Shown: positions 2-28,589, numbered from the stretch's first letter. The stretch: DNA of 35,954 nt from an uncultured Eubacteriales bacterium (GCA_964550915.1 CAZKBY010000002.1:1-35954); one strand, 5' to 3'. A program made the numbers and translations. The notes: generated from the sequence alone by a model not told the origin.

Positions 2-343
2 TTTTATTCTGTCTCCCGATCGGCCCGGCTTGTCGGCCCGGGGAAGTTTCAGCTCCGCGAAGACAATCGCACCTACCGCTTTTTTTTCGTCACTCAGAAA
101 CCCGTTGAGGAACTGCAAATTTCTCTCGGCTCAAAAGCCGGCGATTATGAATACAGGCTAAAGATTTTTGATGAGGCATTTTCGAGCGGGACAACAGCCG
201 GAGAAATCATGGCCGTGAAACTTCAGGATCCTCCGTGCTACAAACTGAAGAAGAAAAGTTATTATGAACTGATCCTGGACCTGGGAAAGGGCGCCGGAGT
301 CCAGACTTCTCTTCAGCCTTTCCTTTTCAGCGTCGATTTTTAA
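2..343 (+). CDS. 3' end (about 113 codons) of a gene truncated by the left window edge; product unknown
   Basis: By hand translation the frame is open from nt 2 to TAA at 341-343 (...AVKLQDPPCYKLKKKSYYELILDLGKGAGVQTSLQPFLFSVDF*). It is absent from the ORF track because it has no in-window start. It converges on the GT2 gene and overlaps its stop by 4 nt. No motif recognised. Confidence 0.4.
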   Translation, partial: FYSVSRSARLVGPGKFQLREDNRTYRFFFVTQKPVEELQISLGSKAGDYEYRLKIFDEAFSSGTTAGEIMAVKLQDPPCYKLKKKSYYELILDLGKGAGVQTSLQPFLFSVDF

Positions 344-1080
344 CTGAACTGCTCAAATTTTTTAATGCCCCACTTGTGGAGTTTGAATTTCGCCAGAGTT
401 TTGAGGATCGAAAGCCCATAGACCACGCTGCGCAGAAAGCCGATCTGGGAGGCTTCCTCGAAATACCTGGTCGCGATTGGGATTTCCTGAATGCGCAGGC
501 CGTGGATGGCGGCCTGGGCGATGATCTCCGAATCGAAGACAAAATCGTCAGAATTCAGTTCCAGGTTGACCGTCTCAAGATACCGGCGGGAATAGGCCCG
601 CAGCCCTGAATGATACTCGGTAAGGGATATGCCGAAAGCCGCATTCTCAAGGGCAGTGAGGAAAATATTGGCCAGGTATTTCCAGCGCGGCATCCCGCCC
701 TCGAGCGCCCGGCCGCCCAACATCCGGGAGCCGAACACAGCATCGCATTCTTCGTTAAGCAGCGGCAAGATCAACTGAGGGATAATCTTGGGATCGTACT
801 GGTGGTCGGGGTGAATCATGACCATGATGTCGCCGCCTAACTTGAGGGCTTCGCGGTAGCAGGTTTTCTGATTGCCGCCGTAACCCCGGTTCTTCGAGTG
901 GACAAGGACGCGGAGGCCGAGCTTCCGGGCAACCTCGACAGTCCCGTCACGGCTGGCATCATCGGTGAGGATAATTTCATCCACCCATTCCCGTGGGATG
1001 TCACGGTAGGTCCGCTCGAGGGTTTTTTCGGCGTTGTAGGCGGGCATGACGACGATGACTTTTTTCTTGCGATCTTTCAT
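340..1080 (-). CDS. Family 2 glycosyltransferase, polyprenyl-phosphate sugar synthase type (DPM1/ArnC/GtrB-like)
   Basis: 246 aa with GT-A signatures: VVMPAYNAEKTL near the N-terminus, ILTDDASRDGT (DxD region), NRGYGGNQKTC and HPDHQYDP. Soluble single-domain architecture. Confidence 0.85.
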   Translation of the reverse strand: MKDRKKKVIVVMPAYNAEKTLERTYRDIPREWVDEIILTDDASRDGTVEVARKLGLRVLVHSKNRGYGGNQKTCYREALKLGGDIMVMIHPDHQYDPKIIPQLILPLLNEECDAVFGSRMLGGRALEGGMPRWKYLANIFLTALENAAFGISLTEYHSGLRAYSRRYLETVNLELNSDDFVFDSEIIAQAAIHGLRIQEIPIATRYFEEASQIGFLRSVVYGLSILKTLAKFKLHKWGIKKFEQFS

Positions 1081-3073: not shown

Positions 3074-5122
3074 ATGAACTCTAACCGGCGTCGGCGAACC
3101 TGGCTGATCATCCCCCTGGCCGGACTTCTCCTGGCGGGCTTCGCTTCTCGCCCGGCAGAGGAGCAGACAGATCAAGCCTCCCCATCTGATGAGCTCGCCC
3201 GGGTTTTGAGGGCCCTGAAAGAGCTCAATCAGGATTCCCTTCAGGAGTCGGCGTGTCTTCCTTCGATCTGCCAAAACGATGTCGGGCAAACATGGGCTGT
3301 CTGGGAGGAATGGCAAGGCCAGGCCAGCCGGCTGAGATTGGCCCGGCTCGAGGAGGGACAGGTCGCATCTCTCCAGGACCTCGGCTGCCAGGCAGGATTC
3401 AACTTCTCGCCCCGTCTTGCGCTAAAGGGCCACGATTCTCTGTGGCTTATTTGGGTGAACTATTTTAAGGGGGAATACAGAGTTTTCGTCCAGGAGCTCT
3501 CATCAGGATTGGTCTGGCGTCTTGGCGCTTCAAACTCGGCTTCTATTACCAGCCCTCGGCTTGTCTTTGACCGCGCTGGAAACGTCTGGGCGTTCTGGAA
3601 CGAGACCAGCCATGAAGGGGTGATTGTTTGGCGGGTATTTCGTCAGGCTGTCTGGTCGCCCCGGCAAATTTTAAGGTCAAAAGCCGGGTATCCTGCTCTT
3701 AACCCTGATGTGGCCGTTGATGTTCACGGCTCTATCTGGCTGACTTGGTCAAGTTTTGATGGTCACGACTACGAACTTCATCTTGCCCGCTGGAACGGCT
3801 TTGCCTGGGAGGAAGAGGTCAGGCTGACGGATAATCAAGAAAACGATACCTTCCCGGCTATTAGTTTCAACGGAAGAAACGGCGGTCGTTTGCTCGTCAC
3901 TTGGACCCGCTCGGCCGAGAGCGGCCATCAAGTTTACATTGCTTCGGTCAAGAACGGACGGCTGGAACATGAGTCCTCCGTCTCCCCTCCCGACAGCCAG
4001 ATGATGATTCCGTCCTTGCTGGAAAGCCGTGGAGAGATAAGCGCAGTCTGGAAATCATTCAAGGGAATTAAGGCCAGCCCGATCAAAGACCCTCTCGATG
4101 ACCGGGTTGAGCTTTCATCCACCCCTGCTTCTCCGGCCGGTTTTCTCTTTAACCCTTCTCTGGATGAAAATGTCTACCTCTGTTTCGGCGACAGCATTAC
4201 TTACGGGTATATCGACCGCGAACCCTATCCGGAGTTAGGCTACCCCCCGCGTCTTGAGACCATTCTCAAGCAGAATTATGGCCCCACCCTTTCCGTCAAC
4301 CTGGGGATCGGGGGCGAAAACACCATCCTCGCTCTGGCCCGCATCGATAGCGTCCTCGCCAGCCAGCAAGGCCGGTACATCCTGATCATGGAGGGAACGA
4401 ACGACATCATCACTCCAGGTCTTGCCATGACCACATCGGCGAACAACCTCCGGGAGATAGTCAGGAGATGCCTTCAAGCCGGGGTTTATCCCCTGCTCGC
4501 CACAATCTTGCCGCGTAAAGACACGTACGGAGTTATAGAATATTATAGCAACAGGATTATCGAACTCAACCAAGCGATTCGCCAGATTGCCGCCGATTTT
4601 CCCGTTTCTTTTGTTGATATGTATGAAATCTTCAACAACTACCCGGCCTCAGACGGCGGACTCTTGGCCGTCCTCTCTAACGACCTTAAGCATCCGAGCG
4701 CCAAGGGCTATCAGGTCATGGCCGAGTCGTGGTTCAACGAAATCAAAGTTATCCCCTTCCCTCCCGTTGAAATCGTGATAACCAGCAAATCCTTCCAAAA
4801 TGCTTTCCTCAGCCGTCGCGGCACGATTATCATCGGGCGGCCAACCAAGAAACCTTCCCTCACGACCGGCTCCTCCTGGGGAACGTATCTCGCCTGGAAA
4901 GAAAACCCCAAGATATTCGACCCAGCCTGCATCCTGGGCTACAAGGTTTACAGGAAGGATCGCTACCATCCACGAAGCCAGTTCCGCTTTGTGGCTTTGA
5001 TCAAATCACCCCTCGAGTTTTTCGACCCGGGGATCCAGTCGGTCGGCCGCTATATCTACCTCATTTCAGCCATCCGGACGGACGGCGTCGAAGGATCTTG
5101 CGCCGGACCCATCAGCGAATAA
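3074..5122 (+). CDS. Secreted multidomain SGNH/GDSL hydrolase: N-terminal W-rich repeat (propeller-like) domain, SGNH esterase domain, C-terminal Fn3-like domain
   Basis: SGNH blocks: FGDSITYGY (I), GIGGENT (II), EGTNDI (III), NDLKHPS (V). Five to six ~45-aa repeats carry a WxxW signature (TWAVWEEW, LWLIWVNY, VWAFWNET, IWLTWSSF, LLVTWTRS, ISAVWKSF). Signal peptide RRRRTWLIIPLAGLLLAGFA. Start placed at ATG 3074 rather than the track's TTG 3047; no SD at either, so the start is uncertain. Confidence 0.8.
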   Translation: MNSNRRRRTWLIIPLAGLLLAGFASRPAEEQTDQASPSDELARVLRALKELNQDSLQESACLPSICQNDVGQTWAVWEEWQGQASRLRLARLEEGQVASLQDLGCQAGFNFSPRLALKGHDSLWLIWVNYFKGEYRVFVQELSSGLVWRLGASNSASITSPRLVFDRAGNVWAFWNETSHEGVIVWRVFRQAVWSPRQILRSKAGYPALNPDVAVDVHGSIWLTWSSFDGHDYELHLARWNGFAWEEEVRLTDNQENDTFPAISFNGRNGGRLLVTWTRSAESGHQVYIASVKNGRLEHESSVSPPDSQMMIPSLLESRGEISAVWKSFKGIKASPIKDPLDDRVELSSTPASPAGFLFNPSLDENVYLCFGDSITYGYIDREPYPELGYPPRLETILKQNYGPTLSVNLGIGGENTILALARIDSVLASQQGRYILIMEGTNDIITPGLAMTTSANNLREIVRRCLQAGVYPLLATILPRKDTYGVIEYYSNRIIELNQAIRQIAADFPVSFVDMYEIFNNYPASDGGLLAVLSNDLKHPSAKGYQVMAESWFNEIKVIPFPPVEIVITSKSFQNAFLSRRGTIIIGRPTKKPSLTTGSSWGTYLAWKENPKIFDPACILGYKVYRKDRYHPRSQFRFVALIKSPLEFFDPGIQSVGRYIYLISAIRTDGVEGSCAGPISE

Positions 5123-5140
5123 CTCGACAAGACAAGGAAT

Positions 5141-5169
5141 TTGACAATTCAGCCAGATGGGACTATTCT
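5141..5169 (+). promoter_or_regulatory. Candidate sigma70 promoter for the Ser/Thr kinase gene
   Basis: TTGACA (5141-5146), 17 nt, TATTCT (5164-5169), directly after the SGNH gene stop. A GGGAG SD precedes the ATG at 5201. Confidence 0.45.
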
Positions 5170-5200
5170 TCAACTACCCTGCAGGGAGCGGAACCCCGCC

Positions 5201-7768
5201 ATGAAATGCCGCCGATGCAACTTCGACAACCCGGAAGAGAGCCGCTTTTGCGCCAACTGCGCCTCTCCCCTAACGTCCGCCGAATCGGCCGAGGAATCAC
5301 GGACCCAGACCTTAACGGGAGTCCCCTGGGATCTCAAGCGAGACCATCTCTTCGCCGGTCGTTATGAGGTCATGGAAGAGCTGGGCAGCGGCGGCATGGG
5401 AAGGGTTTACAAAGTTTTTGATACCAAAATCCGGGAAGTCGTCGCCCTCAAATTTGTCAGGCCAGAGCTCGCTTCAAGACCCCAGACTCTCGAGCGCTTC
5501 CGCGAAGAAGTTCGCTTGGCGCGAAAAATCACTCACAAGAACGTCTGCCGGATGCACGATATCAACGAGGCAGAGGGAATTTCTTACGTCACCATGGAAT
5601 ACGTCCCCGGAGAAGACCTTAAGAGCATCATCCGGATGATGGGCAAGCTCAGCCCTGGTCAGGCGATCGCCATCGGCAAACAGATCTGCTCGGGGTTGGC
5701 CGAGGCGCACAGGCTGGGCATTATCCACAGGGACTTGAAGCCGAAAAACATCATGATCGACCGCCAGGGGAACGCCCGGATCATGGACTTCGGGCTGGCC
5801 CGCTCACTTGAGGAAAAGGGAATCACCGCCGGCCGGGTCGTGTTGGGGACGGCCGAATACATGTCGCCAGAGCAAGTGGACGGGAAAAGAGTGGACAGCC
5901 GCTCGGACATCTATTCCCTGGGCATCATCCTCTTCGAAATGGTCACCGGCGAGATTCCCTTCGAAGGAGACTCGGCCCTGAGCATCGCCCTCAAACACAA
6001 AACAGAGCCGCCTCCCGATCCGAGACATATCAACCCTCAAGTTCCCGAGCCCCTGTCGCGGATCATCCTCAGATGCCTGGAAAAAGAAGAAGGGAAGAGA
6101 TATCAGAGTGCAGAAGAGCTCTGCTCTGAGCTCGAAAAACTGGAGAAAACTTTCCCGGTCGAAAGAAAGATACTTCCAAAGAAAGGATTATCCAGCCTGG
6201 AGAAATTGATCAAGCATCCTCCTTTGAAAAAAATCACTGTGCCGGCTCTGGGGGCCATGATGGTCATCTTCCTGGGCATCCTGGCCTGGCGCTTCTTCCC
6301 GAAAAAAGCAGCTGTCGTCCCTCCTTCGACCAAGCCCTCGCTCGCCGTCCTGTTCTTCAAGAATAACACGGGAGACAGGGACTTGGATGTCTGGAAGGAG
6401 GCCCTGGCCGAGAACCTCATCTGGGAGCTCCGTCGCTCGTCCGAGGACATCGTCGTTCTCAGCGCCGACACGATCCGAGGCCTGCTCAGAAAGTTAAGCC
6501 TCAGCCCGACGTGGAGTTATTCTTCGGAGGACCTCCAGGCCGTGGGGAAAGAAGCGGGAGTTAAGAGCGTTCTGACAGGGACATTCTCTAAGTCAAGAAT
6601 CTATTTCGACCTGAAGGACGTTCAGACGAATGAGCTCATGGCGAGCGGCCGCGTGGAGGGCGAGGGAGAGAAAGATTACGACCGGATGACCGATGACATG
6701 GCCGGACAGATTCTGGCGTGCTTCAGCCTGCCAGCCAAGGCTCAGCCTGCCAAAATTTCAACCCCGTCCATCTATGCCAACCGATACTACCAGTCAGGCC
6801 GTCAAGCAGAAAAAAAATACAAGGAGGCTGGAAAAGACGAGACTTTCCGGGAGAGCCTGGCCTTTTATGAAAGGGCTCTCGCTGAAGACCCAAACTTTGC
6901 TCTTATTTACTGGGGATTGGGAGATTTGTATCAAAGCCGGTATGTGGAGACCAAAGCGCCGGAAGACCTCGAGCTTACTCTCGGTTATTATGAGAAAGCC
7001 TACCAACTCGCTCCCGACCTGGCCGGGGCTAATTCAGGCCTGGGCTGGACCTATTTCCTCAAGAGCGACAACGATAAAGCTTATCTCTATTTCAAGCGGT
7101 CGCTCGAGCTGGAGCCGAGCAATCCCTCCATTCACTTCAACGCCGCCTCCTTCCTCAAAAGCATCGGTTTGCCCGAACAGGCAATCAAGCACTATACCCG
7201 GGCAATCAGTCTTGGCGAGCTGTCTTTCTTGAGCTACTGGCTGCGGGCATCCTGCCTGGAGCGCCTGGGCAGACCAGAAGAGGCCGCAGGGGATGCAAAA
7301 CGCCTTCTCGAGATAGAGCCGGATAATATCGGGGCTTCTCTCTTTCTGGCTCGCCTGCTCATAAACCAAAAAAGGCTATCCGAAGCCGAGAGGGAGATCG
7401 CCTTTGCCGCCAAGCTCGATCCCGGCTCTCTTGATCTTCGTCTCAGTCAGGCTCTTCTTTTCGCCGCAATGGGCGACCGGGAAAAAGCGCTATTTCTCGT
7501 CCAGCCGGCCAGGACAAACCCGATCTTCTACAGTTATCTTCTCTCCCGTGTCTTCGCCCTTCTCGGGATGAAAGAAGAAGCCCTGGAGAACATCGGGCTT
7601 GCCATCGAGCGAGGATTCCAGGAAACCCAGGAATATTTCTACGAATATCCATTTCTGGCCACAAGCTATTACTACGACAGTCTGCGGGACGACCTTCGCT
7701 TCATCGAGATCTTAGAGAAGCAGAAGATAAGGTATGATGATAACTCAAGAAAGTTTGGCGGATTGTAG
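5201..7768 (+). CDS. Ser/Thr protein kinase with N-terminal zinc ribbon, one TM helix, periplasmic domain and C-terminal TPR repeats
   Basis: Zinc ribbon MKCRRCNFDNPEESRFCANC. Kinase motifs GSGGMGRVY, VALK, HRDLKPKNIMI, DFGLA and AEYMSPEQ. TM helix ITVPALGAMMVIFLGILAWRFF. TPR-like repeats (ALIYWGLGDLY, LGWTYFL...). Start set at ATG 5201 (SD GGGAG) rather than the track's upstream extension. Confidence 0.9.
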   Translation: MKCRRCNFDNPEESRFCANCASPLTSAESAEESRTQTLTGVPWDLKRDHLFAGRYEVMEELGSGGMGRVYKVFDTKIREVVALKFVRPELASRPQTLERFREEVRLARKITHKNVCRMHDINEAEGISYVTMEYVPGEDLKSIIRMMGKLSPGQAIAIGKQICSGLAEAHRLGIIHRDLKPKNIMIDRQGNARIMDFGLARSLEEKGITAGRVVLGTAEYMSPEQVDGKRVDSRSDIYSLGIILFEMVTGEIPFEGDSALSIALKHKTEPPPDPRHINPQVPEPLSRIILRCLEKEEGKRYQSAEELCSELEKLEKTFPVERKILPKKGLSSLEKLIKHPPLKKITVPALGAMMVIFLGILAWRFFPKKAAVVPPSTKPSLAVLFFKNNTGDRDLDVWKEALAENLIWELRRSSEDIVVLSADTIRGLLRKLSLSPTWSYSSEDLQAVGKEAGVKSVLTGTFSKSRIYFDLKDVQTNELMASGRVEGEGEKDYDRMTDDMAGQILACFSLPAKAQPAKISTPSIYANRYYQSGRQAEKKYKEAGKDETFRESLAFYERALAEDPNFALIYWGLGDLYQSRYVETKAPEDLELTLGYYEKAYQLAPDLAGANSGLGWTYFLKSDNDKAYLYFKRSLELEPSNPSIHFNAASFLKSIGLPEQAIKHYTRAISLGELSFLSYWLRASCLERLGRPEEAAGDAKRLLEIEPDNIGASLFLARLLINQKRLSEAEREIAFAAKLDPGSLDLRLSQALLFAAMGDREKALFLVQPARTNPIFYSYLLSRVFALLGMKEEALENIGLAIERGFQETQEYFYEYPFLATSYYYDSLRDDLRFIEILEKQKIRYDDNSRKFGGL

Positions 7769-10953: not shown

Positions 10954-12609
10954 TTGAAAGAGAGATTCCCTCCCGCTCGCTCGATCGCCATCCTTCTCTT
11001 CATCCTGACGCTGGCGGCCGCCCTTCGCCTCCAGCACCTCAAAGCCGATCCTCCCCCGCTCCTCGTCCATCTCAGCCGGAGCGCCGGCATCTATTTCGAT
11101 GAAGCGATGTACTGCCATAATGCCCGGAACAAGATTCTCTTTGGCACATGGATGTTGGACGATTGGAACCCCATCCTCTACAACGCCGTCCTGACGGGGA
11201 TCTATTATGTCGGGTTTAAAATCTTCGGGATAAGCATCGTCACCGTCAAAGTGACGAATATTCTCTTCGGCCTGTTAGGCATCGTCTTTGTCTATTTGGC
11301 CATTCGCCGCTACCTTTCCGAATCCTATGCCCTCGGCCTGAGCTTTCTCTTCTCTTTTGACTTTTACTGGACAATGTACAACCGGATCGGCCTGCTCGAG
11401 AATTTCTCGACGCTTTTTTTCATCATCAGCTTTTATTTTATCGCAAGATCGAAAGAAAAGGGCGGCAATCTCATCCTTGTCGGCGTTTCTGTGGCCATGG
11501 CCGTTCTTTCCAAGTATCTGTTCTTCTACTTTTTCCCGGCCGCGCTTCTTGCCGTGCTCTACCATTCCTGGAGTCAGAGACGCTGGCGCCCCGCTGTCCA
11601 ATTTTTAGCGGGTTTCATTTCAGTCCTCTTAGTGTGGTTTCTTTCCATCTACCTCCCGCTTTCTTCGGCCTTCAGGAAAATCGGGTCTGGCTGGATGGAC
11701 CTTTCCTGGCCCGAGAATATAGGCATCTTCTTTTATAACCTCTACCGCAATAACCTGTCTCGCTACATGAGCCTCATCCCCTTCTTTTTTATCGCCGGGC
11801 TCCTTTTCTCGGCCATGGTCATTGTCAGGCTGTGGAAGAAAAATCCTCCGCCGGATGTTCTCGAGGTGTTTGTTTTCCTGTGGCTCACAGGAACGTCTTT
11901 CCAGATGGCCATTCTTAATTACCAGCCCCTGCGCTATTACCTCGTCATCGTGCCAGGGCTTATTCTTGCCCTATCGCTAACCGTAAAGAGTAGAGACTGG
12001 CTGAAGGCCAATGCCAAGCCTGTTGCCTTTATTTTTATTTTCCTCGGAGTCCTCTTCTACAAGTTCTGGATCGGCCTGGTCAGGCCGCCATCAGCCTTCT
12101 TCGCTTTCAATCACATCGCTCTCCGGATGTTCCTCTATCTAACTTTGGCCATGATATTTGTTTTGTGGCTGAGGAAGACCCGCCGGCTGGAAAAAGCAGC
12201 CTGCCTTTATATCCTCGTCTCCCTTGCCCTTGCCTCCCTGTTTGTTTACTATTTTCAATTTTACAGGCAGCCCACTTACCAGGTTGAGTCGGCCGCCCGG
12301 CGGCTTCGTCTTCTGCCGCCCGGATCGGTGATTATGGGAAATGAGGCTCCCCGGCTGGCTCTGGAAACGCAGTTCAGGTTTTTTGTTTCCTTCCCCGGCT
12401 GGTTTAACGATAAAGATCCCTTCACCCAATATCGGCCCACTCACCTCCTCGTCCTCGATAAGTTCTGGGGAGGTGAGCTCGCCTGGATTCAGAGGCGATT
12501 TCCGGATATCGCGGCCAACCTCAGATTGCACCGGCGGTTCCCCGTCTGGGATACGACCGTCTCTCTTTACAAAGTCAATTATCCCGATAAATCGCCAGGC
12601 TCTCCTTAG
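10954..12609 (+). CDS. Polytopic GT-C fold glycosyltransferase (ArnT / PMT_2, GT39/GT83-like)
   Basis: 551 aa with more than 10 predicted TM segments. The acidic first-loop motif IYFDEAMYCHNARN follows TM1, as in ArnT/PMT enzymes. C-terminal soluble domain. TTG start as listed in the track. Confidence 0.8.
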   Translation: MKERFPPARSIAILLFILTLAAALRLQHLKADPPPLLVHLSRSAGIYFDEAMYCHNARNKILFGTWMLDDWNPILYNAVLTGIYYVGFKIFGISIVTVKVTNILFGLLGIVFVYLAIRRYLSESYALGLSFLFSFDFYWTMYNRIGLLENFSTLFFIISFYFIARSKEKGGNLILVGVSVAMAVLSKYLFFYFFPAALLAVLYHSWSQRRWRPAVQFLAGFISVLLVWFLSIYLPLSSAFRKIGSGWMDLSWPENIGIFFYNLYRNNLSRYMSLIPFFFIAGLLFSAMVIVRLWKKNPPPDVLEVFVFLWLTGTSFQMAILNYQPLRYYLVIVPGLILALSLTVKSRDWLKANAKPVAFIFIFLGVLFYKFWIGLVRPPSAFFAFNHIALRMFLYLTLAMIFVLWLRKTRRLEKAACLYILVSLALASLFVYYFQFYRQPTYQVESAARRLRLLPPGSVIMGNEAPRLALETQFRFFVSFPGWFNDKDPFTQYRPTHLLVLDKFWGGELAWIQRRFPDIAANLRLHRRFPVWDTTVSLYKVNYPDKSPGSP

Positions 12610-12676: not shown

Positions 12677-12706
12677 TTGACAGCGCCGCTTGAGTTTTTT
12701 CATACT
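12677..12706 (+). promoter_or_regulatory. Candidate promoter giving a leaderless start at ATG 12714
   Basis: TTGACA (12677-12682), 18 nt, CATACT (12701-12706). ATG 12714 lies 7 nt downstream of the -10. No SD before any candidate start. Confidence 0.35.
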
Positions 12707-12713
12707 CATGGCA

Positions 12714-15092
12714 ATGAACAAGCTCCAGAGCCGCCTGGCTGTCATAGGCTTTCTTGTTTTTTCCTTTGGATTCGCCCTCTTCGTGAGCCTTTATCTCCAG
12801 AGCCGCCGCTTCACCATCCTTGATCATGGCTTCCAGTTTGACGTCTTCCTTTTTTTGCTCTGGGTCAGTGCTTCAGCTCTCCTTCTTTCAGTTTGGATTT
12901 TTCTGGCGCGATGGGAAGCAAGGCGGTTCTCCCTCCCTTTGGCTTCGCGGCTTTGGGCAGGATTCTTGACCTCGTTTCCCCTGGCCTTTCTCCTCCTCTC
13001 TCCCTGGCTTCTCCGTTTCTACACGACCCGGGACGACCTCAGAATCAGGCTCCGTCTCCTAGCCCTCTTCGTTCTTTCCGCTGTCATGTTCTCCAAGCTG
13101 TGGAGTTATGCCCGCCTCGAGAGAAAAAAGCCCTCCTTGCTTGATCGCGCAATGGCAAGATTCCAGGCCTTTTCCCATCGCCGGAAACTCGTCCTTCTTT
13201 TCATCACCGCCTTCCTCATTTATCAAGCCGCCGCCGGCCTTCTCGTCGTCCAGGGGACATCTTTCACGGGCGACGAACCATTTTACCTACTAACCACCCA
13301 CAGTCTCCTCAAAGATGGAGACATCAACCTGGCCAACAACTACGCCCAAAAGGACTATTTTGCTTTCTACTCGAAGAAAGACAATCCTCGCCTCAGGCTG
13401 GGAATCTATGGCCGCTTCGGCCGCAAGGGGAGAGACTATATTTATCCCATCAATCTCCCAGGAATTTCCGTGTTGATGCTTCCCTTCTACTGGCTGAGCC
13501 AGTTCTTTTCCGGCCGCTGGCTCACCTTTATCCTTAAGGCGAGCCTCTCTCCCTGGGCGGCGCTCTTAGGTGTCCAGCTCTATCTTTATGCCAAAGAGCT
13601 CTGGAAAAAAGAGAAAGTTGCCTTCGGCCTCTGGGCACTCTTTTCCTTCACTTCCCCCATCGTTTTCTATGCAGTCCATCTTTACCCCGAGGTTCCCGTA
13701 GCGCTTTTTTCCCTCTATATTTTCCGAAAAGTCACGACCTCCATGATCTTGCTAGCGCGTCAAGTTCTCTTTCTCGGATTTGTCCTCGGCCTTTTTCCGT
13801 GGTTCGGGCTCAAGTACAACTTCGTCTTCTGGCCGCTCCTGGCGGTCTCAGTGTATTTCCTTCTCAAAGAGCATAGGGCCAAGATCAAGGTGCTTGTCGC
13901 TTTTCTGGCCTTCCCTCTGGCCTCCACCCTCCTCTTTTACTTTTTCGTTTATAACTTGTATGGCACCCTCTCGCCCGTAGCCGTCTATGAAGGCATCATG
14001 ACACCGGAGCAGGTGGAGGCATTTAAGCAGACGGTCCTGGCCATTCCTCTGCAGGCGAGGATCGACGCTTTCCTGGATTACTTCCTCGACCAGCGCGACG
14101 GTCTTCTCCTCTATTCTCCCCTCTACGCGTTTGCCTTTCTCGGCTTAGTCGAAATCTTCCGCCGACGCAGGCGGGATTTCTGGTCGTTTCTTCTCATCGG
14201 CCTTCCTTTTCTTCTCAACTACGCCTTCTTTACCCACCGCCAGGGCGCCTCTCCCCAGGGCCGGGTCCTGACGCCCCTGTCCTGGATGGCGGCTGTGGCG
14301 CTCGGATATTTCTTCGTCCACAACCGCAGCAAGATTTTTTCCTTCCTCTTTGGGTTCGCCACCGCTACTGCCTACGCTGTCGCCGGCCTGCTTCTCGCTC
14401 AACCCGATTTTCTTTACCAGCCAACCACTCATGAATACACCTCCCGGCCGGCCGATCTCTTCATCCATCTCAGCAACATGCATTTTTTTCTCCCCCCTTT
14501 CCTTCCCTCATTCATCAAAGTGGACAACACCCGCTACTGGCCAAATTATGTCTGGATTCTGGCCATCGTCGTCTTTGTCCTGTTGTATCTATTCCCTTGC
14601 CGTGAAAAAGCCTGGCTGCGCTTGCTTCCACCAGCTCTTGTCTTCCTCGGCCTCACGGCCAGCTTTTTCCTCTGGGTGCTTTATCCCCGGCCGCCTCTCT
14701 ATCCGGCCAAGACAATCCGCTATTCTTCCCAAAAAGCTCTGGGATTCTACCTTTTTCCGATCGGAAAAGCGGTTGTTTCAGGAGAAAACGGCGATTTCTA
14801 CCTACATGCTGAAAGAACCTACAAATTTATCTTCGGCTCCAGGACAAGGCTGGATAGAGCGCGGTTTGTCTTCGGGTCTGACAAAGGCGATTACAGTGTC
14901 CGTCTGGCGCTATTCGACCTTCCCTTCTTCGACGGGAAAACAGCCTTTAAGACGAGAGAAGTCCTCGTCGAGCCCGTCGCAGCTTACTCTTTTAAGAACC
15001 TCTATCTCTATGAGATCAGCCTCAGCCTCAACCATCATTCCTCAGAATCCATGCTCCTCGACCCCTATCTTTTCCAAGTCATTCCCCGGTGA
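12714..15092 (+). CDS. Large polytopic membrane protein, second GT-C-like glycosyltransferase candidate
   Basis: The ORF is open from TTG 12690, with ATGs at 12708 and 12714. Many TM segments. First-loop acidic motif FTGDEPFYLLTTHSLLKDGDINLANNY. C-terminal ~200-aa soluble domain. The stop lies inside direct repeat copy 1. Confidence 0.75.
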   Translation: MNKLQSRLAVIGFLVFSFGFALFVSLYLQSRRFTILDHGFQFDVFLFLLWVSASALLLSVWIFLARWEARRFSLPLASRLWAGFLTSFPLAFLLLSPWLLRFYTTRDDLRIRLRLLALFVLSAVMFSKLWSYARLERKKPSLLDRAMARFQAFSHRRKLVLLFITAFLIYQAAAGLLVVQGTSFTGDEPFYLLTTHSLLKDGDINLANNYAQKDYFAFYSKKDNPRLRLGIYGRFGRKGRDYIYPINLPGISVLMLPFYWLSQFFSGRWLTFILKASLSPWAALLGVQLYLYAKELWKKEKVAFGLWALFSFTSPIVFYAVHLYPEVPVALFSLYIFRKVTTSMILLARQVLFLGFVLGLFPWFGLKYNFVFWPLLAVSVYFLLKEHRAKIKVLVAFLAFPLASTLLFYFFVYNLYGTLSPVAVYEGIMTPEQVEAFKQTVLAIPLQARIDAFLDYFLDQRDGLLLYSPLYAFAFLGLVEIFRRRRRDFWSFLLIGLPFLLNYAFFTHRQGASPQGRVLTPLSWMAAVALGYFFVHNRSKIFSFLFGFATATAYAVAGLLLAQPDFLYQPTTHEYTSRPADLFIHLSNMHFFLPPFLPSFIKVDNTRYWPNYVWILAIVVFVLLYLFPCREKAWLRLLPPALVFLGLTASFFLWVLYPRPPLYPAKTIRYSSQKALGFYLFPIGKAVVSGENGDFYLHAERTYKFIFGSRTRLDRARFVFGSDKGDYSVRLALFDLPFFDGKTAFKTREVLVEPVAAYSFKNLYLYEISLSLNHHSSESMLLDPYLFQVIPR
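15065..15090. repeat. Direct repeat copy 1 (CTATCTTTTCCAAGTCATTCCCCGGT)
   Basis: 25/26 identical to 16561-16586. Encodes ...YLFQVIPR of the membrane protein; its TGA follows at 15090-15092. Confidence 0.9.
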
Positions 15093-15118
15093 GGCTAAGA
15101 CGCCGGGTGTTACTTCAT

Positions 15119-15202
15119 TCCTTCGACCGATTCATCTCCGATTACCAGAGCAGCTTTGAGAAGGAGTACGACATCTTCAGTCCGATCGTCAAGGAGGTGG
15201 TC
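15119..15202 (+). pseudogene. Short remnant resembling the N-terminus of an IS91-family (Y2, zinc-binding domain) transposase
   Basis: SFDRFISDYQSSFEKEYDIFSPIVKEVV fits the pattern W/F..F...Y...FE..YG.FRP.V.EVV..yLdCG that I recall preceding the Cys cluster in these transposases. Similarity ends before the Cys cluster and AT-rich non-coding-looking sequence follows. From memory only, not searched. Confidence 0.35.
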
Positions 15203-15292
15203 ATTCGCATCATCAACCACCTCAAACTCAAAAATGAGCTTGCGTTTTCGCCTAAATATCTTGGCAAAATTATCTATGAAGACAAATTTGCC

Positions 15293-15320
15293 TTGACTTT
15301 TTTTTCTTATCAGATAAAAT
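15293..15320 (+). promoter_or_regulatory. Strong candidate promoter giving a leaderless ATPase mRNA
   Basis: TTGACT (15293-15298), 16 nt, TAAAAT (15315-15320). ATG 15327 is 6 nt after the -10. No SD. Confidence 0.5.
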
Positions 15321-15326
15321 GGTCAT

Positions 15327-16547
15327 ATGATTGATCGTCATCTCGAGAAGATTTGTTCCGATCCCAAAATCGGCCGCCAGATGATCCTGATTGCCGGACC
15401 GAGACAGGCCGGCAAGACCACACTCGCCCGTCACATCCTGTCCAAGAATGATTCCCGGCCTCTCTATTATAACTGGGATTTAAGGGAAATCCGGGACGCC
15501 TATCGCTCAGACCCATCTTTCTTCGAAAGCACCATGCGTGACGTCAAGTTGAAGGGTCATTTCCCCTGGGTCTGTTTTGATGAGATCCACAAGATGCCGA
15601 AATGGAAGAACATCCTCAAGGGCATCTATGACAAATTTGAAAAAGAATGCCGCTTCATCATCACCGGCAGCGCCCGGCTCGAGTGGCTTCGAAGGGCCGG
15701 GGATTCTCTGGCGGGTCGTTACTTTCTTTTCCACCTGAACCCCTTGTCGCTTTCCGAGGCGGCTGGAAGACCGCATTTAGAGCCGAGGCCGGATGAGTCC
15801 GCTTGGGAATTCATCGAGCGGAAACTGGACACCGGCCGCCCGGAACAGGTTCTATTGGAACAGCTACTCACGTACAGCGGATTCCCCGAGCCGTTTCTCA
15901 AGGCGAATGAGGCGTTTTATCGTCGCTGGCAAAGGGAAATGGTAGACGCTCTCACGAGGGAAGACGTCCGCGACCTGACCCGAATCCTGGCCGTCGAGCA
16001 CGTCGCGACGTTGATGCAGCTCATGCCGGAGAGAGTCGGCTCACCCCTTTCCTTGAATGCTCTCAAGGAAGACGTCGAGACGAGCTATACGGCGGTCAGG
16101 AACGCGGTTCGGGCCTTGGAACTCACCTACGCCGTCTTCCTGCTGTCACCCTTCAGTCATAAAATTGCCCGCGCCGTCAAGAAAGAGAAGAAGGGCTATT
16201 TCTACGATTGGGGCCGCTGCCGCGATTTAGCCAAGTGTTTTGAGAACTACATCGCGGTCGAGCTCAAAATCATGATTGATCTCTGGCACGACAAGGGGAT
16301 CGGCGACTTCGACCTGATGTATGTGCGGACCAAGGACGGCAAGGAAACCGACTTCCTGATCATGCGCGACCGAAAACCCTGGTGCCTGTTCGAGGCCAAG
16401 CTTCAGGACGAAGAGATTGCCCGCCATCATATCGACCAGGCAAGGGTGCTGGGGAACGTGCCTTATGTCCAGCTCGCGCGGGTGGCGAATGTTTACAAGA
16501 TAACTGCCCCCGGCTTCATCCGCGTATCGGCCAGCCGTTTCTTTTAG
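15327..16547 (+). CDS. AAA+ ATPase of the AAA_14/DUF4143 type with a C-terminal PD-(D/E)xK-like module
   Basis: Walker A IAGPRQAGKTTLA and Walker B VCFDEIHK. The C-terminal KETDFLIMRDRKPWCLFEAKL has a D...E-x-K nuclease-fold signature. Confidence 0.85.
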   Translation: MIDRHLEKICSDPKIGRQMILIAGPRQAGKTTLARHILSKNDSRPLYYNWDLREIRDAYRSDPSFFESTMRDVKLKGHFPWVCFDEIHKMPKWKNILKGIYDKFEKECRFIITGSARLEWLRRAGDSLAGRYFLFHLNPLSLSEAAGRPHLEPRPDESAWEFIERKLDTGRPEQVLLEQLLTYSGFPEPFLKANEAFYRRWQREMVDALTREDVRDLTRILAVEHVATLMQLMPERVGSPLSLNALKEDVETSYTAVRNAVRALELTYAVFLLSPFSHKIARAVKKEKKGYFYDWGRCRDLAKCFENYIAVELKIMIDLWHDKGIGDFDLMYVRTKDGKETDFLIMRDRKPWCLFEAKLQDEEIARHHIDQARVLGNVPYVQLARVANVYKITAPGFIRVSASRFF

Positions 16548-16560
16548 ATTGATAAAGATT

Positions 16561-16586
16561 CTATCTTTTCCAGGTCATTCCCCGGT
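16561..16586. repeat. Direct repeat copy 2 (CTATCTTTTCCAGGTCATTCCCCGGT)
   Basis: Contains the tsaD stop (16575-16577, - strand). On the + strand it still reads YLFQVIPR followed by TAG. Confidence 0.9.
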
Positions 16587-17594
16587 AGCGCTGAAGCGGG
16601 GGTAGGCGTCGAGCTCGAGAGAAAGCCTTACTTTTTTCTTGGCCCTCATTTTCTCGATGGCTAGAGCTGCCACCATGGCTGCGTTGTCCGTGCAGAGGGC
16701 GGGTGAAGGCACAAAGCCCACAAGCCCGGATGAGCGGGCCAGTTGCTCGAACTGCTGCCTCAACCTCTTGTTTCTCGCTACCCCGCCGCAGAGAATGAGC
16801 GAGACCGGGTTGAATTTCTCGGCGGCCCGGCTGAGGTTATCTAACAGGGCGCGGACAACCGCCTCTTCAAAGCTCGCCAGAAAATCCGCCAAGTGGGAAT
16901 GGTCAGCCGACATTTTCGTCTCGCCGATCAGCCGGAGGGCGGCTGTCTTAAGCCCGCTGAAGCTGAAGTCTAAGCTTGAATCTTTCATCCTCGGAAGGGC
17001 AAAAGAAAATTTCTCCGGGTCTCCCGACTCTGCCATTCTCTCGATCACCGGCCCGCCCGGGTAGCCGAGACCGAGAAACTTGGCAATCTTGTCCAGAGCT
17101 TCGCCAGCTGCGTCATCTCTGGTTCGACCTAAAAGACGGTACTGAAACCTCTTTTTCAGGAAAAAAAGCGACGTGTGCCCGCCCGAGACGACAAGGGCGA
17201 CAGCCGGAATGGGAAGGCCTGGGTTTTCGAGAAAGGCCGCCTCCATGTGGGCTTCGAGATGATCAACGCCGACAAGCGGCTTATTAAAATAATAAGCCAG
17301 AGCTTTGGCAAAAGAAAGACCAACAAGAAGAGAGCCAATGAGCCCGGGGCCTTGGGTAACCGCATAGGCATCGATACGGTCGAGTGTGAGGTTTGCCCGG
17401 CGAAGGCTCTCGCCGACGATAAAGTTGATCGAGGCAAGGTGCTGCCGGGAGGCGAGCTCGGGCACGACGCCGCCGTAAGGCGCGTGGATCTCATCCTGAG
17501 ACAAAACGATGCTGCTCAGGACCTTGCGGTTGCCCGTCAGGACGGCGGCCGCCGTCTCATCACAGGATGTCTCGATTCCCAGGACATGCTTCAT
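16575..17594 (-). CDS. tsaD: tRNA N6-adenosine threonylcarbamoyltransferase TsaD (Kae1/Gcp)
   Basis: 339 aa with VLGIETSCDETAAAV, GPGLIGSLLVG, VDHLEAH and VSGGHT. Confidence 0.95.
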   Translation of the reverse strand: MKHVLGIETSCDETAAAVLTGNRKVLSSIVLSQDEIHAPYGGVVPELASRQHLASINFIVGESLRRANLTLDRIDAYAVTQGPGLIGSLLVGLSFAKALAYYFNKPLVGVDHLEAHMEAAFLENPGLPIPAVALVVSGGHTSLFFLKKRFQYRLLGRTRDDAAGEALDKIAKFLGLGYPGGPVIERMAESGDPEKFSFALPRMKDSSLDFSFSGLKTAALRLIGETKMSADHSHLADFLASFEEAVVRALLDNLSRAAEKFNPVSLILCGGVARNKRLRQQFEQLARSSGLVGFVPSPALCTDNAAMVAALAIEKMRAKKKVRLSLELDAYPRFSATGE

Positions 17595-18634
17595 GGACGA
17601 TTGCCTCGGTCGCTCCAGGCGGCCAGGCTCCGCCGGTAGGGCGGACGAGCGATACCCCTTTCGCTGATGATAGCGGTGATAAGCCGGCCGGGGACGACGT
17701 CAAAGGCCGGGTTTCTCACCTTGATATGAGGCAGAGTGACGGGGCATCCGCCGGCCTGCCTGACTTCCTCAGCCGGCCGTTCCTCGATCGGAATCTCCTC
17801 CCCTTTCCGCAGGCTGAAATCGAACGTGCTGAGCGGCGCGGCCACATAAAAGGGAAGGCGATGCTGGCGAGCGAGGATGGCGATGGAATAGGTGCCTATT
17901 TTATTGGCTGCGTCGCCGTTCGAAGCGATCCTGTCGGCGCCGGTAATGGTGAGGTTAACCTCTCCTTTTTTCATCAGCCAGCCAGCCATGCTGTCAGTGA
18001 TGAGAGTCAATGGAATTCCGAGACGGTCGAGCTCCCAAGCTGTGAGCCTTGAGCCCTGGAAAAAGGGCCGCGTTTCATCGACAAAAACGTGGATTTTCTT
18101 CCCCTCCTCATGGGCTGCCCGGATGACCCCGATGGCTGTCCCGTAGCCGGATGTGGCCAGGCCACCCGCATTGCAGTGGGTCAGAATCGAATCGCCGTCC
18201 TTGATGAGGTTCTTCCCGTTCCGGCCGATCCGTCTATTCGTCTCGATATCCTCTCTCTCTATGGCCAGGGCTTCGCTGATCAGCCTTTTCTTGAGTGCGC
18301 TGAGACGACCAGATTTCGCTTCAGCAAAGACTTTTCTCATCCTCTCCAACGCCCAGAAAAGGTTGCGGGCCGTCGGACGGGTCCTGGACAGACGTTCAGC
18401 CGCTTCCTCAAACCTTCTATTGGCGTCTTCAGTGGACTTGAGATTGAGAATGCTGAGAACGAGGCCGAAAGCGGCAGCCACTCCGATGGCCGGTGCGCCG
18501 CGGATGACCATTTTTTCGATGGCCGCGGCAACCTCCTCCGAGCGCTGGCATTCCACGTAGACTTCTTCAAGCGGCAGTCGGCGCTGGTCGATCATGACCA
18601 CCCTGTCGTCCTTCCAGGCGATCGTCGGCAACAT
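17591..18634 (-). CDS. mtnA: S-methyl-5-thioribose-1-phosphate isomerase (eIF-2B-like family)
   Basis: 347 aa with RGAPAIGVAAAFG, HCNAGGLATSGYGTAIGVIRAA, VDETRPFFQGSRLTAWEL and ADRIASNGDAANKIGTY. 4-nt overlap with the tsaD start. Confidence 0.9.
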   Translation of the reverse strand: MLPTIAWKDDRVVMIDQRRLPLEEVYVECQRSEEVAAAIEKMVIRGAPAIGVAAAFGLVLSILNLKSTEDANRRFEEAAERLSRTRPTARNLFWALERMRKVFAEAKSGRLSALKKRLISEALAIEREDIETNRRIGRNGKNLIKDGDSILTHCNAGGLATSGYGTAIGVIRAAHEEGKKIHVFVDETRPFFQGSRLTAWELDRLGIPLTLITDSMAGWLMKKGEVNLTITGADRIASNGDAANKIGTYSIAILARQHRLPFYVAAPLSTFDFSLRKGEEIPIEERPAEEVRQAGGCPVTLPHIKVRNPAFDVVPGRLITAIISERGIARPPYRRSLAAWSDRGNRP

Positions 18635-27306: not shown

Positions 27307-27443
27307 TTAAAGGGTGCGTGAAGACGTTTTTCAAACGTTCAAGCCAGGTCGAAAAAGGGAACGTATAAATTAAGGGACATCAAGAAAGAGCGTGCTTTTC
27401 TTCCCGAGTGGCCCGGTTTCAGGGCTAAAATAAAGGAGGTTTG

Positions 27444-28589
27444 ATGAAATTCTCTTCTCGGAAACAGATCCAGGATCTCCTCCGTTTCAAGAGCGATTGT
27501 TTCTTAACGACATCCTTTTTTCTTGACACCGACAAGAGCCGGCTGACCAAAAAAGAAATCTCTGTATCTTTGAAGAACCTGCTCCATCAAGGCCGGACAC
27601 GGCTGGAAACACTCGAAGCCGACAGAAGGAAAAAAGACTCGCTGGCCGAGGATTTGGAAAAAATCAGCCGCTTTGGGACCCAGGTCATGCCAGCCCATAC
27701 AGCTCCCGGGCTGGCACTTTTTTCTTGCGCCGGCGAGAATTTCTGGCAGGAGCTCTCCCTGCCCCGGGCACCGCGCAACCACATCTTCTTTGATCGTGCT
27801 CCCTATGTCCGGCCTCTTTCTTCGATCATGGATGAATACCACCACATCTGTGCTTTTCTCCTGGACCGCCAAATGGCCCGCTGGTACGGCATTTTCATGG
27901 GAGAAATCGTCCTCCTTGAATCTCTGACCAGTGATGTCCCTAGCCGGGTCAGGGAAGGAGGCTGGCAGGGGTACGAATCGAAGCGCATCGAAAGGCACAT
28001 CGACGCCCATCTTCGCGAGCATTTCAAGAGGGCAACCCAAAAAACTTTCGAGCTGTTCAAAAAAGACAGGTTCGACTGGCTTTTTATTGGCTTGAAGGAG
28101 GAGTACCGGCCAGACATCGAGCCCCTCCTCCATCCCTACCTGCGGGAACGCCTGAAAGGCTGGCTCAGAACGAACTCGAATGATTCAGAGGACAAGATTC
28201 TCAAACATTCCATGGAGATCGAAGCGATACTGAAAGCCGAGGAGGAGAAAGCCCTGGTCATGACGCTCGTCACCGAGATTGAAAAGGGAGGCCGCGCCGT
28301 TTCAGGTGTGAGAGATGTCCTCCGGAAGTTGAACGATGCCGAAGTCCAGACTCTGGTCCTGACCCGAAATTTTGCCATCGAAGGAAGGGCCTGTCCCAAA
28401 TGCGGCTTTCTCTATACCGACGAGCTCCGGTGTCCTGTCTGCACCGTTGCAACAGAGAAGGTTCAGGACATCATTCACGAAAGCGTCCATCGAGCCATGG
28501 ACAAAAAGTGCCAGGTCCGTTACATCACGCCGCCCTCGCGGCTCGACCGCTTCGGGAAAATCGGCGCCCTCCTGAGGTTCAAAAGATAA
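27444..28589 (+). CDS. Bacterial eRF1/Pelota/Vms1-superfamily (baeRF1-type) release-factor-like protein with zinc-ribbon insert
   Basis: SRVREGGWQGYESKRIERHIDAHLREHFKRATQKTFELF aligns by eye with the eRF1 M-domain GGQ block ([34 protein letters not shown]). The central and C-terminal blocks GGRAVSGVRDVLRKLNDAEVQTLVL and DRFGKIGALLRF match eRF1 domain C. A CPKCG...CPVC zinc ribbon is present. RBS AAGGAGG. Confidence 0.8.
   Translation: MKFSSRKQIQDLLRFKSDCFLTTSFFLDTDKSRLTKKEISVSLKNLLHQGRTRLETLEADRRKKDSLAEDLEKISRFGTQVMPAHTAPGLALFSCAGENFWQELSLPRAPRNHIFFDRAPYVRPLSSIMDEYHHICAFLLDRQMARWYGIFMGEIVLLESLTSDVPSRVREGGWQGYESKRIERHIDAHLREHFKRATQKTFELFKKDRFDWLFIGLKEEYRPDIEPLLHPYLRERLKGWLRTNSNDSEDKILKHSMEIEAILKAEEEKALVMTLVTEIEKGGRAVSGVRDVLRKLNDAEVQTLVLTRNFAIEGRACPKCGFLYTDELRCPVCTVATEKVQDIIHESVHRAMDKKCQVRYITPPSRLDRFGKIGALLRFKR

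Follow-up and report, generated by a model that had tools for sequence, protein, structure and literature searches.

Insertion sequences (ISs) of the IS91 family make no target duplication (PMC3575428). For the complex class 1 integrons linked to ISCR1, the route suggested is read-through of terIS, a circular intermediate, and homologous recombination in a shared segment that duplicates the 3'-conserved segment (3'-CS) (PMC7707992, PMC3575428, PMC13393415). Among the most abundant defence candidates is PDC-S01, an ATPase fused to a PD-(D/E)xK domain, which has not been validated (PMC12988326, PMC13356809, PMC3424549); DUF4143 is listed as a member of the PD-(D/E)xK superfamily (PMC3424549). 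Here we describe a 1.5-kb insert, carrying an IS91-family remnant and a PDC-S01 ATPase gene, that lies between two convergent genes, tsaD and the membrane protein gene mem800, in a 35,954-nt stretch of DNA from an uncultured Eubacteriales bacterium (GCA_964550915.1 CAZKBY010000002.1:1-35954). This whole stretch is hereafter the window; comparison of mem800 places it in Aminicenantes.

In the ancestor of this locus, mem800 and tsaD were convergent and shared 14 nt (TCATTCCCCGGT plus two more bases). The entry of DNA left a copy of the junction on each side, with both genes keeping complete 3' ends. The insert is a patchwork of truncated pieces: a 12-nt pseudo-tail of tsaD, the IS91 remnant, and the ATPase unit. 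The features are as follows, in window coordinates; L numbers denote related loci.

12690..15092, plus strand: mem800, an open reading frame (ORF) for an 800-aa polytopic membrane protein, GT-C/LA_3751-like, with its last 8 codons and the T of its stop inside repeat copy 1
15065..15090, no strand assigned: repeat copy 1 (CTATCTTTTCCAAGTCATTCCCCGGT), which serves mem800 as its functional 3' end; the minus strand reads TGE and a stop
15091..15102, minus strand: tsaD pseudo-tail (GAGGCTAAGACG), which with copy 1 reads RLSLTGE and a stop, of the L001/L002 allele type
15104..15229, plus strand: miniature IS91-family transposase gene remnant, tnpA codons 17-54 fused to a C-terminal RII(A/N)HLKL motif, truncated at both ends
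15230..15326, plus strand: upstream part of the ATPase unit, with palindrome, -35 and -10, conserved with the gene in L093-L098, L100 and L101
15263-15292, plus strand: palindrome GGCAAAATTATC-N6-GACAAATTTGCC with 12-nt arms, abutting the -35 box
15293-15298 and 15315-15320, plus strand: promoter, -35 TTGACT and -10 TAAAAT with a spacer of 16, scoring 10/12 in a promoter scan
15327..16547, plus strand: AAA_14 and DUF4143 (COG1373) ATPase, 406 aa, with a PD-(D/E)xK-type C-terminal domain (Pfam, PADLOC PDC-S01)
16548..16560, plus strand: 3' flank of the ATPase unit, 13 nt, abutting copy 2 and weakly conserved after the stop in L093, L095, L096 and L098
16561..16586, no strand assigned: repeat copy 2 (CTATCTTTTCCAGGTCATTCCCCGGT), its last 12 nt being the tsaD TGE codons and stop
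16575..17594, minus strand: tsaD (tRNA t6A37 threonylcarbamoyltransferase), full length at 339 aa (TIGR03723 404 bits, Pfam TsaD 2e-89)

The 26-mer CTATCTTTTCCA(A/G)GTCATTCCCCGGT occurs twice, with 25/26 identity between the copies and a single mismatch (A versus G) at repeat position 13. With up to three mismatches allowed (<=3), these are the only two sites in the 35,954 nt, compared to 0.00 expected from 100 dinucleotide shuffles. Copy 1 gives mem800 its ...YLFQVIPR end, then TGA; the plus strand of copy 2 reads YLFQVIPR, then TAG, and the first 14 nt of this copy, a non-coding pseudo-tail of mem800, have CAG, as do L001 and L002. Self-search and ORF reading thus bear out two claims of a preliminary description of this DNA: that a 25/26-nt direct repeat bounds the insert, here the unique such pair in the window, and that the 3' ends of both genes are regenerated, each copy also encoding the tail of the other gene. 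Overall, most of the checkable claims in that description hold, and its interpretation is partly supported. The left edge of the repeat is sharp. The right edge had been described as decaying, and this holds only in part: a tsaD pseudo-tail does follow copy 1, but the copies themselves match at just 6/12 of the next positions and 3/15 of those that follow, extending their local alignment past the 26-mer gains 1 point, and there is an abrupt change to IS91-derived DNA at 15103. No inverted repeats were found at the insert ends, and neither computation nor inspection revealed dyad symmetry or a dif-like shape in the 26-mer, which lies within coding sequence.

The empty site is found among relatives. 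After a metagenome scan with the C-terminal half of mem800 had added 80 loci, the convergent, overlapping mem800/tsaD arrangement was seen in at least 12 related Aminicenantes contigs (L013, L016-L023, L034, L035 and L077), as had been postulated for the ancestral locus. At these empty junctions (e.g. L017, CTATCTTTTTCAAGTCATTCCCTGGGAGCGTTGAAGCG...), one 25-28-nt stretch aligns to both window copies, and the junctions are colinear with copy 1 and its left flank and with copy 2 and its right flank. The blastn comparison with L016 yields two alignments, 13002-15090 and 16561-17652, that overlap by 26 nt in L016 (2077-2102), as is characteristic of insertion with target duplication. The same double mapping to both copies was obtained for L017 (1632-1656) and L013 (3188-3215).

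The junction is occupied in the closest relatives, L001 and L002, which have 83-86% nt identity to the window and 90% to each other. Both have a 504-514-aa GT-C-like membrane gene between mem800 and tsaD (L001:8397-10836, L002:4405-6020), accompanied in L001 by a PIN/VapC-like ORF. Other relatives have a HAD-like gene there, or a spacer of 2-400 nt. The tsaD-mem800 interval therefore is a variable spot: depending on the relative, it is empty or holds a HAD gene, a GT-C membrane gene (alone or with PIN/VapC), a 518-aa gene, or the ATPase of the window. In the deeper clade of L065 (8175-8855) and L081 (8284-8964), a 226-aa gene, HAD-like by motif inspection, separates tsaD from mem800 and shares about 23-49 nt with the 3' end of the latter. 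Flanking repeats above the level of shuffled sequence were absent at the filled junctions of L001, L002, L007, L011 and 15 loci with smaller gaps, and none were found at loci lacking tsaD downstream. A CTATC beside the tsaD stop and a TGAGGC after the mem800 stop of L002 are only suggestive of remnants of a duplication; a decayed duplication in L002, shared by ancestry, was tried as an explanation and dropped, having no statistical support.

One other locus has a duplicated junction. In an Aminicenantales metagenome-assembled genome (MAG), the mem800/tsaD junction has been split by about 1.85 kb in an independent event (L003:3487-6085). The insert encodes an unrelated 518-aa protein on the minus strand (4042-5598) and is flanked by a 335-370-nt direct repeat, which takes in both gene ends, with about 95 nt from the membrane gene and about 310 nt from tsaD. 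The repeat centre has 6 differences in about 180 nt, and the right edge has diverged, with 27 in 157 nt. The tsaD pseudo-fragment retains an intact 102-aa ORF, whose ratio of nonsynonymous to synonymous differences (pN/pS) of 0.36 falls between the expectations of the rival models discussed below; the nearest relative of L003 is only about 71-75% identical. Length and pattern of this repeat fit homology-based integration or gene conversion rather than a transposase, the length in particular suiting homologous recombination.

The bases around the two window copies sort by allele. Copy 1 has CAA at repeat position 13, followed by GAGGCTAAGACG and the mem800-frame stop TGA. Copy 2 has CAG, as in the mem800 genes of L001 and L002, followed by AGCGCTGAAGCG (11/12 to L017 and L063) and the stop TAG. 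The pseudo-tail at 15091-15102 matches the tsaD tail of L002 at 10/12 positions, the best of 73 tails (next best, 7/12), as compared to only 6/12 for the window's own tsaD tail and 2/12 for IS sequence in register; the match to L002 shows that a tsaD pseudo-tail is really present, and the tsaD similarity stops at 15102. The last 60 nt of the window tsaD are nearer to L016 and L017 (79%) than to L001 and L002 (67-75%), whereas the rest of the gene shows the reverse. Past the core, 6/12 nt differ between the copies, while 0/14 of the non-coding copy-2 nt differ from L001 and L002. A duplication created at insertion would at first be identical from end to end, and evenly spread decay does not readily account for such uneven differences. 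The reciprocal sorting of alleles around the 26-mer is compatible with a single crossover with an incoming copy of the junction, which we favour, and so fits the earlier suggestion that the incoming DNA brought its own copy of the target. In this crossover reading, either half could be the "host" one.

Between the pseudo-tail and the ATPase unit lies the IS91-family remnant of 42 codons. An IS91-like transposase scrap had been described, at about 28 codons; its identity stands and its size does not. Exhaustive phmmer search gave 63 matches at E<=1e-3, and Zn_Tnp_IS91 or Y2_Tnp domains were found in 8/9 of the longer family matches scanned. The best match, P0123 (62% over 42 aa), is an 87-aa ORF that joins 54 N-terminal residues to the C-terminal ...RIIAHLKL... 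end, and the window remnant has the same deletion joint. By blastn, the 87-aa ORF of a mini-element matches 15103-15201 with 77% identity (E 3e-16), the match beginning where the pseudo-tail ends; a tblastn search also bore the remnant out. The tnpA 5' end of the remnant faces the left repeat copy, with the cargo on its 3' side. The HUH-Y2 transposase with its Zn_Tnp_IS91 and Y2_Tnp domains is not present, only the leader before the zinc domain and the HLKL motif remaining. The remnant runs from nt 48 of the ORF to just after HLKL, and oriIS and terIS are absent as well; compared to a 947-nt mini-element (L102 981-1927), about 470 nt upstream and the 3' end are missing. No IS91 sequence was found in the nine ATPase-homologue loci, L003, or other loci.

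Mini-elements related to the remnant are common in Aminicenantes MAGs. The 947-nt unit at L102:981-1927 recurs in L106, L108 and L109, 100% identical in at least three flank arrangements, and contains the 87-aa ORF as well as short antisense ORFs that carry annotations as pieces of acid-CoA ligase or CPSase. This unit looks like a non-autonomous derivative of IS91 that is present in multiple copies in Aminicenantes. Codons 8-11 of its IS ORF (CGTCATCCCGAG, L102:1469-1483) are similar to the junction core AGTCATTCCCCGG (window 15076-15090), in register with the downstream IS alignment, and the 12 nt in between are not IS-like; this likeness may be coincidence or recombination microhomology.

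The search history of the remnant carries a methodological warning, in that this 42-codon piece escaped Pfam, NCBIfam, a word-indexed search and tblastn and came to light only with exhaustive HMMER search. Pfam and NCBIfam returned nothing for it, even at E<=10, and a word-indexed protein search returned only the query itself. A tblastn search against plasmids gave matches of E about 1 on the wrong strand of an integrase gene, which were dismissed. We had provisionally rejected the IS91 scrap on these grounds, and the exhaustive phmmer search overturned that rejection.

The cargo is a portable unit at about 15230-16560, comprising the palindrome, the promoter, the leaderless AAA_14/DUF4143 gene, and the 13 nt after it. 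The ATPase matches AAA_14 (PF13173, E 2.1e-27, residues 17-144), DUF4143 (PF13635, E 2.4e-18, residues 212-359), and PADLOC PDLC04790 (PDC-S01, E 3.4e-50, residues 2-361), plus six further PDC-S01 models. Invariant in 27 homologues are the Walker A residues G24-P-R-Q-x-G-K-T-T32, the Walker B residues D85-E86, and E306, D342 and E356-x-K358. These profile searches and the invariant Walker and D-ExK residues confirm the initial assignment as an AAA_14/DUF4143 ATPase with a PD-(D/E)xK-like tail. A structure model, with a predicted local distance difference test (pLDDT) score of 79, gave weak AAA+ matches that were Orc1/Cdc6-, STAND- and clamp-loader-like (template modelling score 0.2-0.28); the fold search did not resolve the DUF4143 domain by itself, and a sequence search of the Protein Data Bank for the ATPase returned nothing significant. 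The proposed promoter, of sigma-70 type, with a leaderless ATG is likewise upheld, the ATG following the -10 hexamer by 6 nt and both promoter and ATG spacing being conserved in nine homologous loci. The palindrome is conserved in seven other loci, with compensatory changes between loci, and is probably an operator, perhaps for autoregulation.

Homologues of the ATPase that are 78-91% identical occur in at least six other, unrelated contexts, with similarity spanning from 35-100 nt before the ATG to a few bases past the stop (to +13). The 1.5 kb therefore is not the minimal vehicle for this gene that it had been taken for, the unit occurring in these other contexts and IS91 sequence being absent from the nine homologous loci. 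A check for long flanking repeats around other DUF4143 genes had been proposed, and none were found at the two sites checked, L093 and L094; the repeat is hence not a property of the cargo. At L094:6001-9959, a pair of AAA_14/DUF4143 genes, 1.5 kb apart, encloses ParE-like and PemK-like toxin genes, a stretch that by its predicted genes is a small defence or toxin-antitoxin islet. The preliminary description left the function of the ATPase wholly open. It belongs to the PADLOC defence candidate PDC-S01 (PMC12988326), a family that is a candidate only, and because of this membership it is probably a nucleic-acid-targeting defence or selfish gene.

Our favoured reading, to which we give about an even chance, is that the window duplication arose by crossover with a junction-carrying circle, probably IS91-derived. 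The incoming molecule would have been circular and already bearing a junction copy from a related Aminicenantes genome. It would have integrated by one reciprocal, Campbell-type crossover in the shared sequence, with no on-the-spot duplication by a transposase, to yield host-left plus donor-right, the insert, and donor-left plus host-right. The most plausible source of the circle would be an IS91-family rolling-circle element reading through terIS into a neighbouring junction; alternatively, it could derive by loop-out from a relative whose site was filled already. Deletions at a later stage would have trimmed the redundant pseudo-ends and gutted the IS, leaving blunt joints at 15102/15103 and 15229/15230. 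Blunt joints between truncated pieces point to such deletions, and hence to an original duplication that was probably longer.

Several points weigh against the circle crossover. About 13 informative bases carry the allele argument, and the tails of tsaD change quickly in evolution. The IS remnant, with neither oriIS nor terIS, may be a passenger, and L003 shows no trace of IS91; the pN/pS of 0.36 there does not discriminate between the models. Among 92 related loci, we found no donor arrangement and no second copy of the insert, and no circle was seen. Finally, 26 identical nt is at the lower limit for RecA-type recombination, so that the crossover requires a longer original homology that was trimmed later.

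A freshly made target duplication is less likely than the circle crossover, and we regard it as a possible though rather doubtful account. It would have a linear fragment of IS scrap and ATPase captured at a staggered double-strand break or by template switching, with a 26-38-nt overhang filled in on both sides; only events that duplicate would survive, since both genes need the overlapping ends. Such a selection filter explains why duplications are present at both overlap sites (the window and L003) and at neither L093 nor L094. The 25/26 identity suggests a recent event, the lack of terminal inverted repeats and of a recombinase is as expected, all internal joints are blunt and illegitimate, and there is possible ATCTTT microhomology at the right joint with the L093 downstream flank. 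Yet fill-in does not account for 12 nt past the core that belong to another tsaD allele (6/12 to the own tail versus 10/12 to L002), nor for the A/G difference, which follows the reciprocal pattern too. The duplication in L003, about 350 nt long with a near-identical centre and diverged edges, is also unlike a uniformly decaying fill-in.

The preliminary description had pictured a dedicated site-specific integrating element. In one form of this idea, a tyrosine or serine recombinase would act in trans on the 26-mer as att core, with the insert as a cis-mobilisable remnant of a larger island. Flanking direct repeats, one copy at the empty site, regenerated 3' ends, and flanks that differ past the core are indeed classic att features. 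Domain scans bore out that no recombinase remains in the insert, and found none among 22 other large ORFs across the 36-kb window; the 26-mer lacks the dyad symmetry or shape of a dif site and is lineage-specific, with 2-5 mismatches already in L016 and L017. Furthermore, the cargo is found elsewhere, free of flanking repeats at the two sites checked, and in L003, the other event at the junction, the repeat is about 350 nt long and its edges are different. A dedicated site-specific integrase is not indicated, and we consider integration in trans improbable. An assembly artefact, either a contig made chimeric where two sequences share a k-mer or an episome wrongly built into the path of the chromosome, would gain some credence from the apparent origin of the sequence in a metagenome assembly, the relatives all being MAGs or metagenome contigs. 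It is nevertheless very improbable: mem800 and tsaD carry on colinearly from the two flanks of the insert, there is a one-base difference between the copies, an unrelated molecule would need the same lineage-specific 26-mer at both ends, and a tsaD pseudo-tail beside copy 1 is unexpected from a chimera.

A broader and more speculative extension of the circle crossover, which we hold to be unlikely, is that overlapping convergent gene ends such as those of tsaD and mem800 serve as recombinase-free landing pads for shuttling single-gene cassettes. With a junction once duplicated around it, a cargo would leave as a circle together with one junction copy and, after transfer, recombine homologously into the unbroken junction of a relative, rebuilding both genes each time; IS91-type rolling-circle elements would seed the first circles, and the window and L003 would be two snapshots. 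If this is true, defence candidates such as PDC-S01 would shuttle between relatives without a dedicated enzyme. More modestly, the window and L003 taken together suggest that genomes may repeatedly gain single genes by homology-carried insertion where gene ends overlap. The locus in any case offers a cleanly resolved example, with its empty site, of foreign DNA in the coding overlap of two genes, tsaD among them, with the frames rebuilt by junction duplication. It also ties PDC-S01, a very abundant uncharacterised defence candidate, to a capture layout of IS91 type, one described chiefly for the antibiotic-resistance integrons of Proteobacteria and here seen in an uncultured phylum.

Of the two flanking genes, mem800 is colinear to its final codon with orthologues in 90 related loci; it has no Pfam match and a weak NCBIfam match to the LA_3751 glycosyltransferase-like family. 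The window TsaD has 88-90% aa identity to those of L001 and L002. No exact-sequence records were found for the window TsaD and ATPase proteins. The C-terminal end of a mem800 paralogue lies at the window start (41-334, plus strand), convergent with a GT2 glycosyltransferase gene (340-1080, minus strand), which is the arrangement found beside tsaD in L007 and L011. The region with this paralogue, the GT2 gene and a PMT_2 gene (10954-12609) looks like a glycosylation gene cluster. Farther along, at 27441-28589, a 382-aa protein matching baeRF family 10 and eRF1 domain 3 is a bacterial homologue of archaeo-eukaryotic release factors.

Compared to known systems, the insertion architecture differs in detail from described layouts, and the cargo family is already known. 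The ISCR1 complex integrons of the Toleman model, in which genes are captured by IS91-like rolling-circle elements, are similar in having a host segment, an IS91-family tnpA pointing away from it, a captured non-cassette gene, and a second host segment, an order represented in the window by 15065-15102, 15104-15229 (plus strand), 15230-16560 and 16561-16586, and in a proposed route that involves no element-made target duplication. They differ in that the duplicated segment here is 26-38 nt of two overlapping gene ends rather than a 3'-CS that measures hundreds of bp, 42 codons are left of the transposase gene, with an internal deletion, truncation at both ends, and neither oriIS nor terIS, the host belongs to Aminicenantes, and the cargo is a defence-candidate gene rather than a resistance gene.

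Genomic islands that tyrosine recombinases integrate at gene 3' ends resemble the locus in their flanking direct repeats, with one copy at the empty site, a coding 3' end rebuilt by the repeat, and, beside one repeat, a pseudo-end that has been displaced and belongs to another allele. The window departs from them in having no integrase, an insert of 1.5 kb, two opposite-strand genes restored at once, and a cargo not tied to the site. Xer-exploiting elements (IMEX) use 28-bp dif-like flanking sites whose two 11-bp arms have partial dyad symmetry, unlike the window 26-mer, which lacks such symmetry and lies in coding sequence. The target-site duplications of transposons and ISs also flank their inserts directly, usually at 2-14 bp, in contrast to 26-38 nt here and about 350 nt in L003, with no terminal inverted repeats.

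As a member of PDC-S01, the window ATPase has the full-length profile match, the same two-domain build of ATPase and PD-(D/E)xK domain, and invariant catalytic-type residues; nothing sets it apart within this known candidate family, to which it belongs as an ordinary member. The site, in turn, is like the defence and toxin-antitoxin hotspots between core genes, in that the tsaD-mem800 interval holds different cargo across relatives. Unlike such hotspots, it is a coding overlap rather than an intergenic spacer, and insertions there must therefore rebuild both gene ends.

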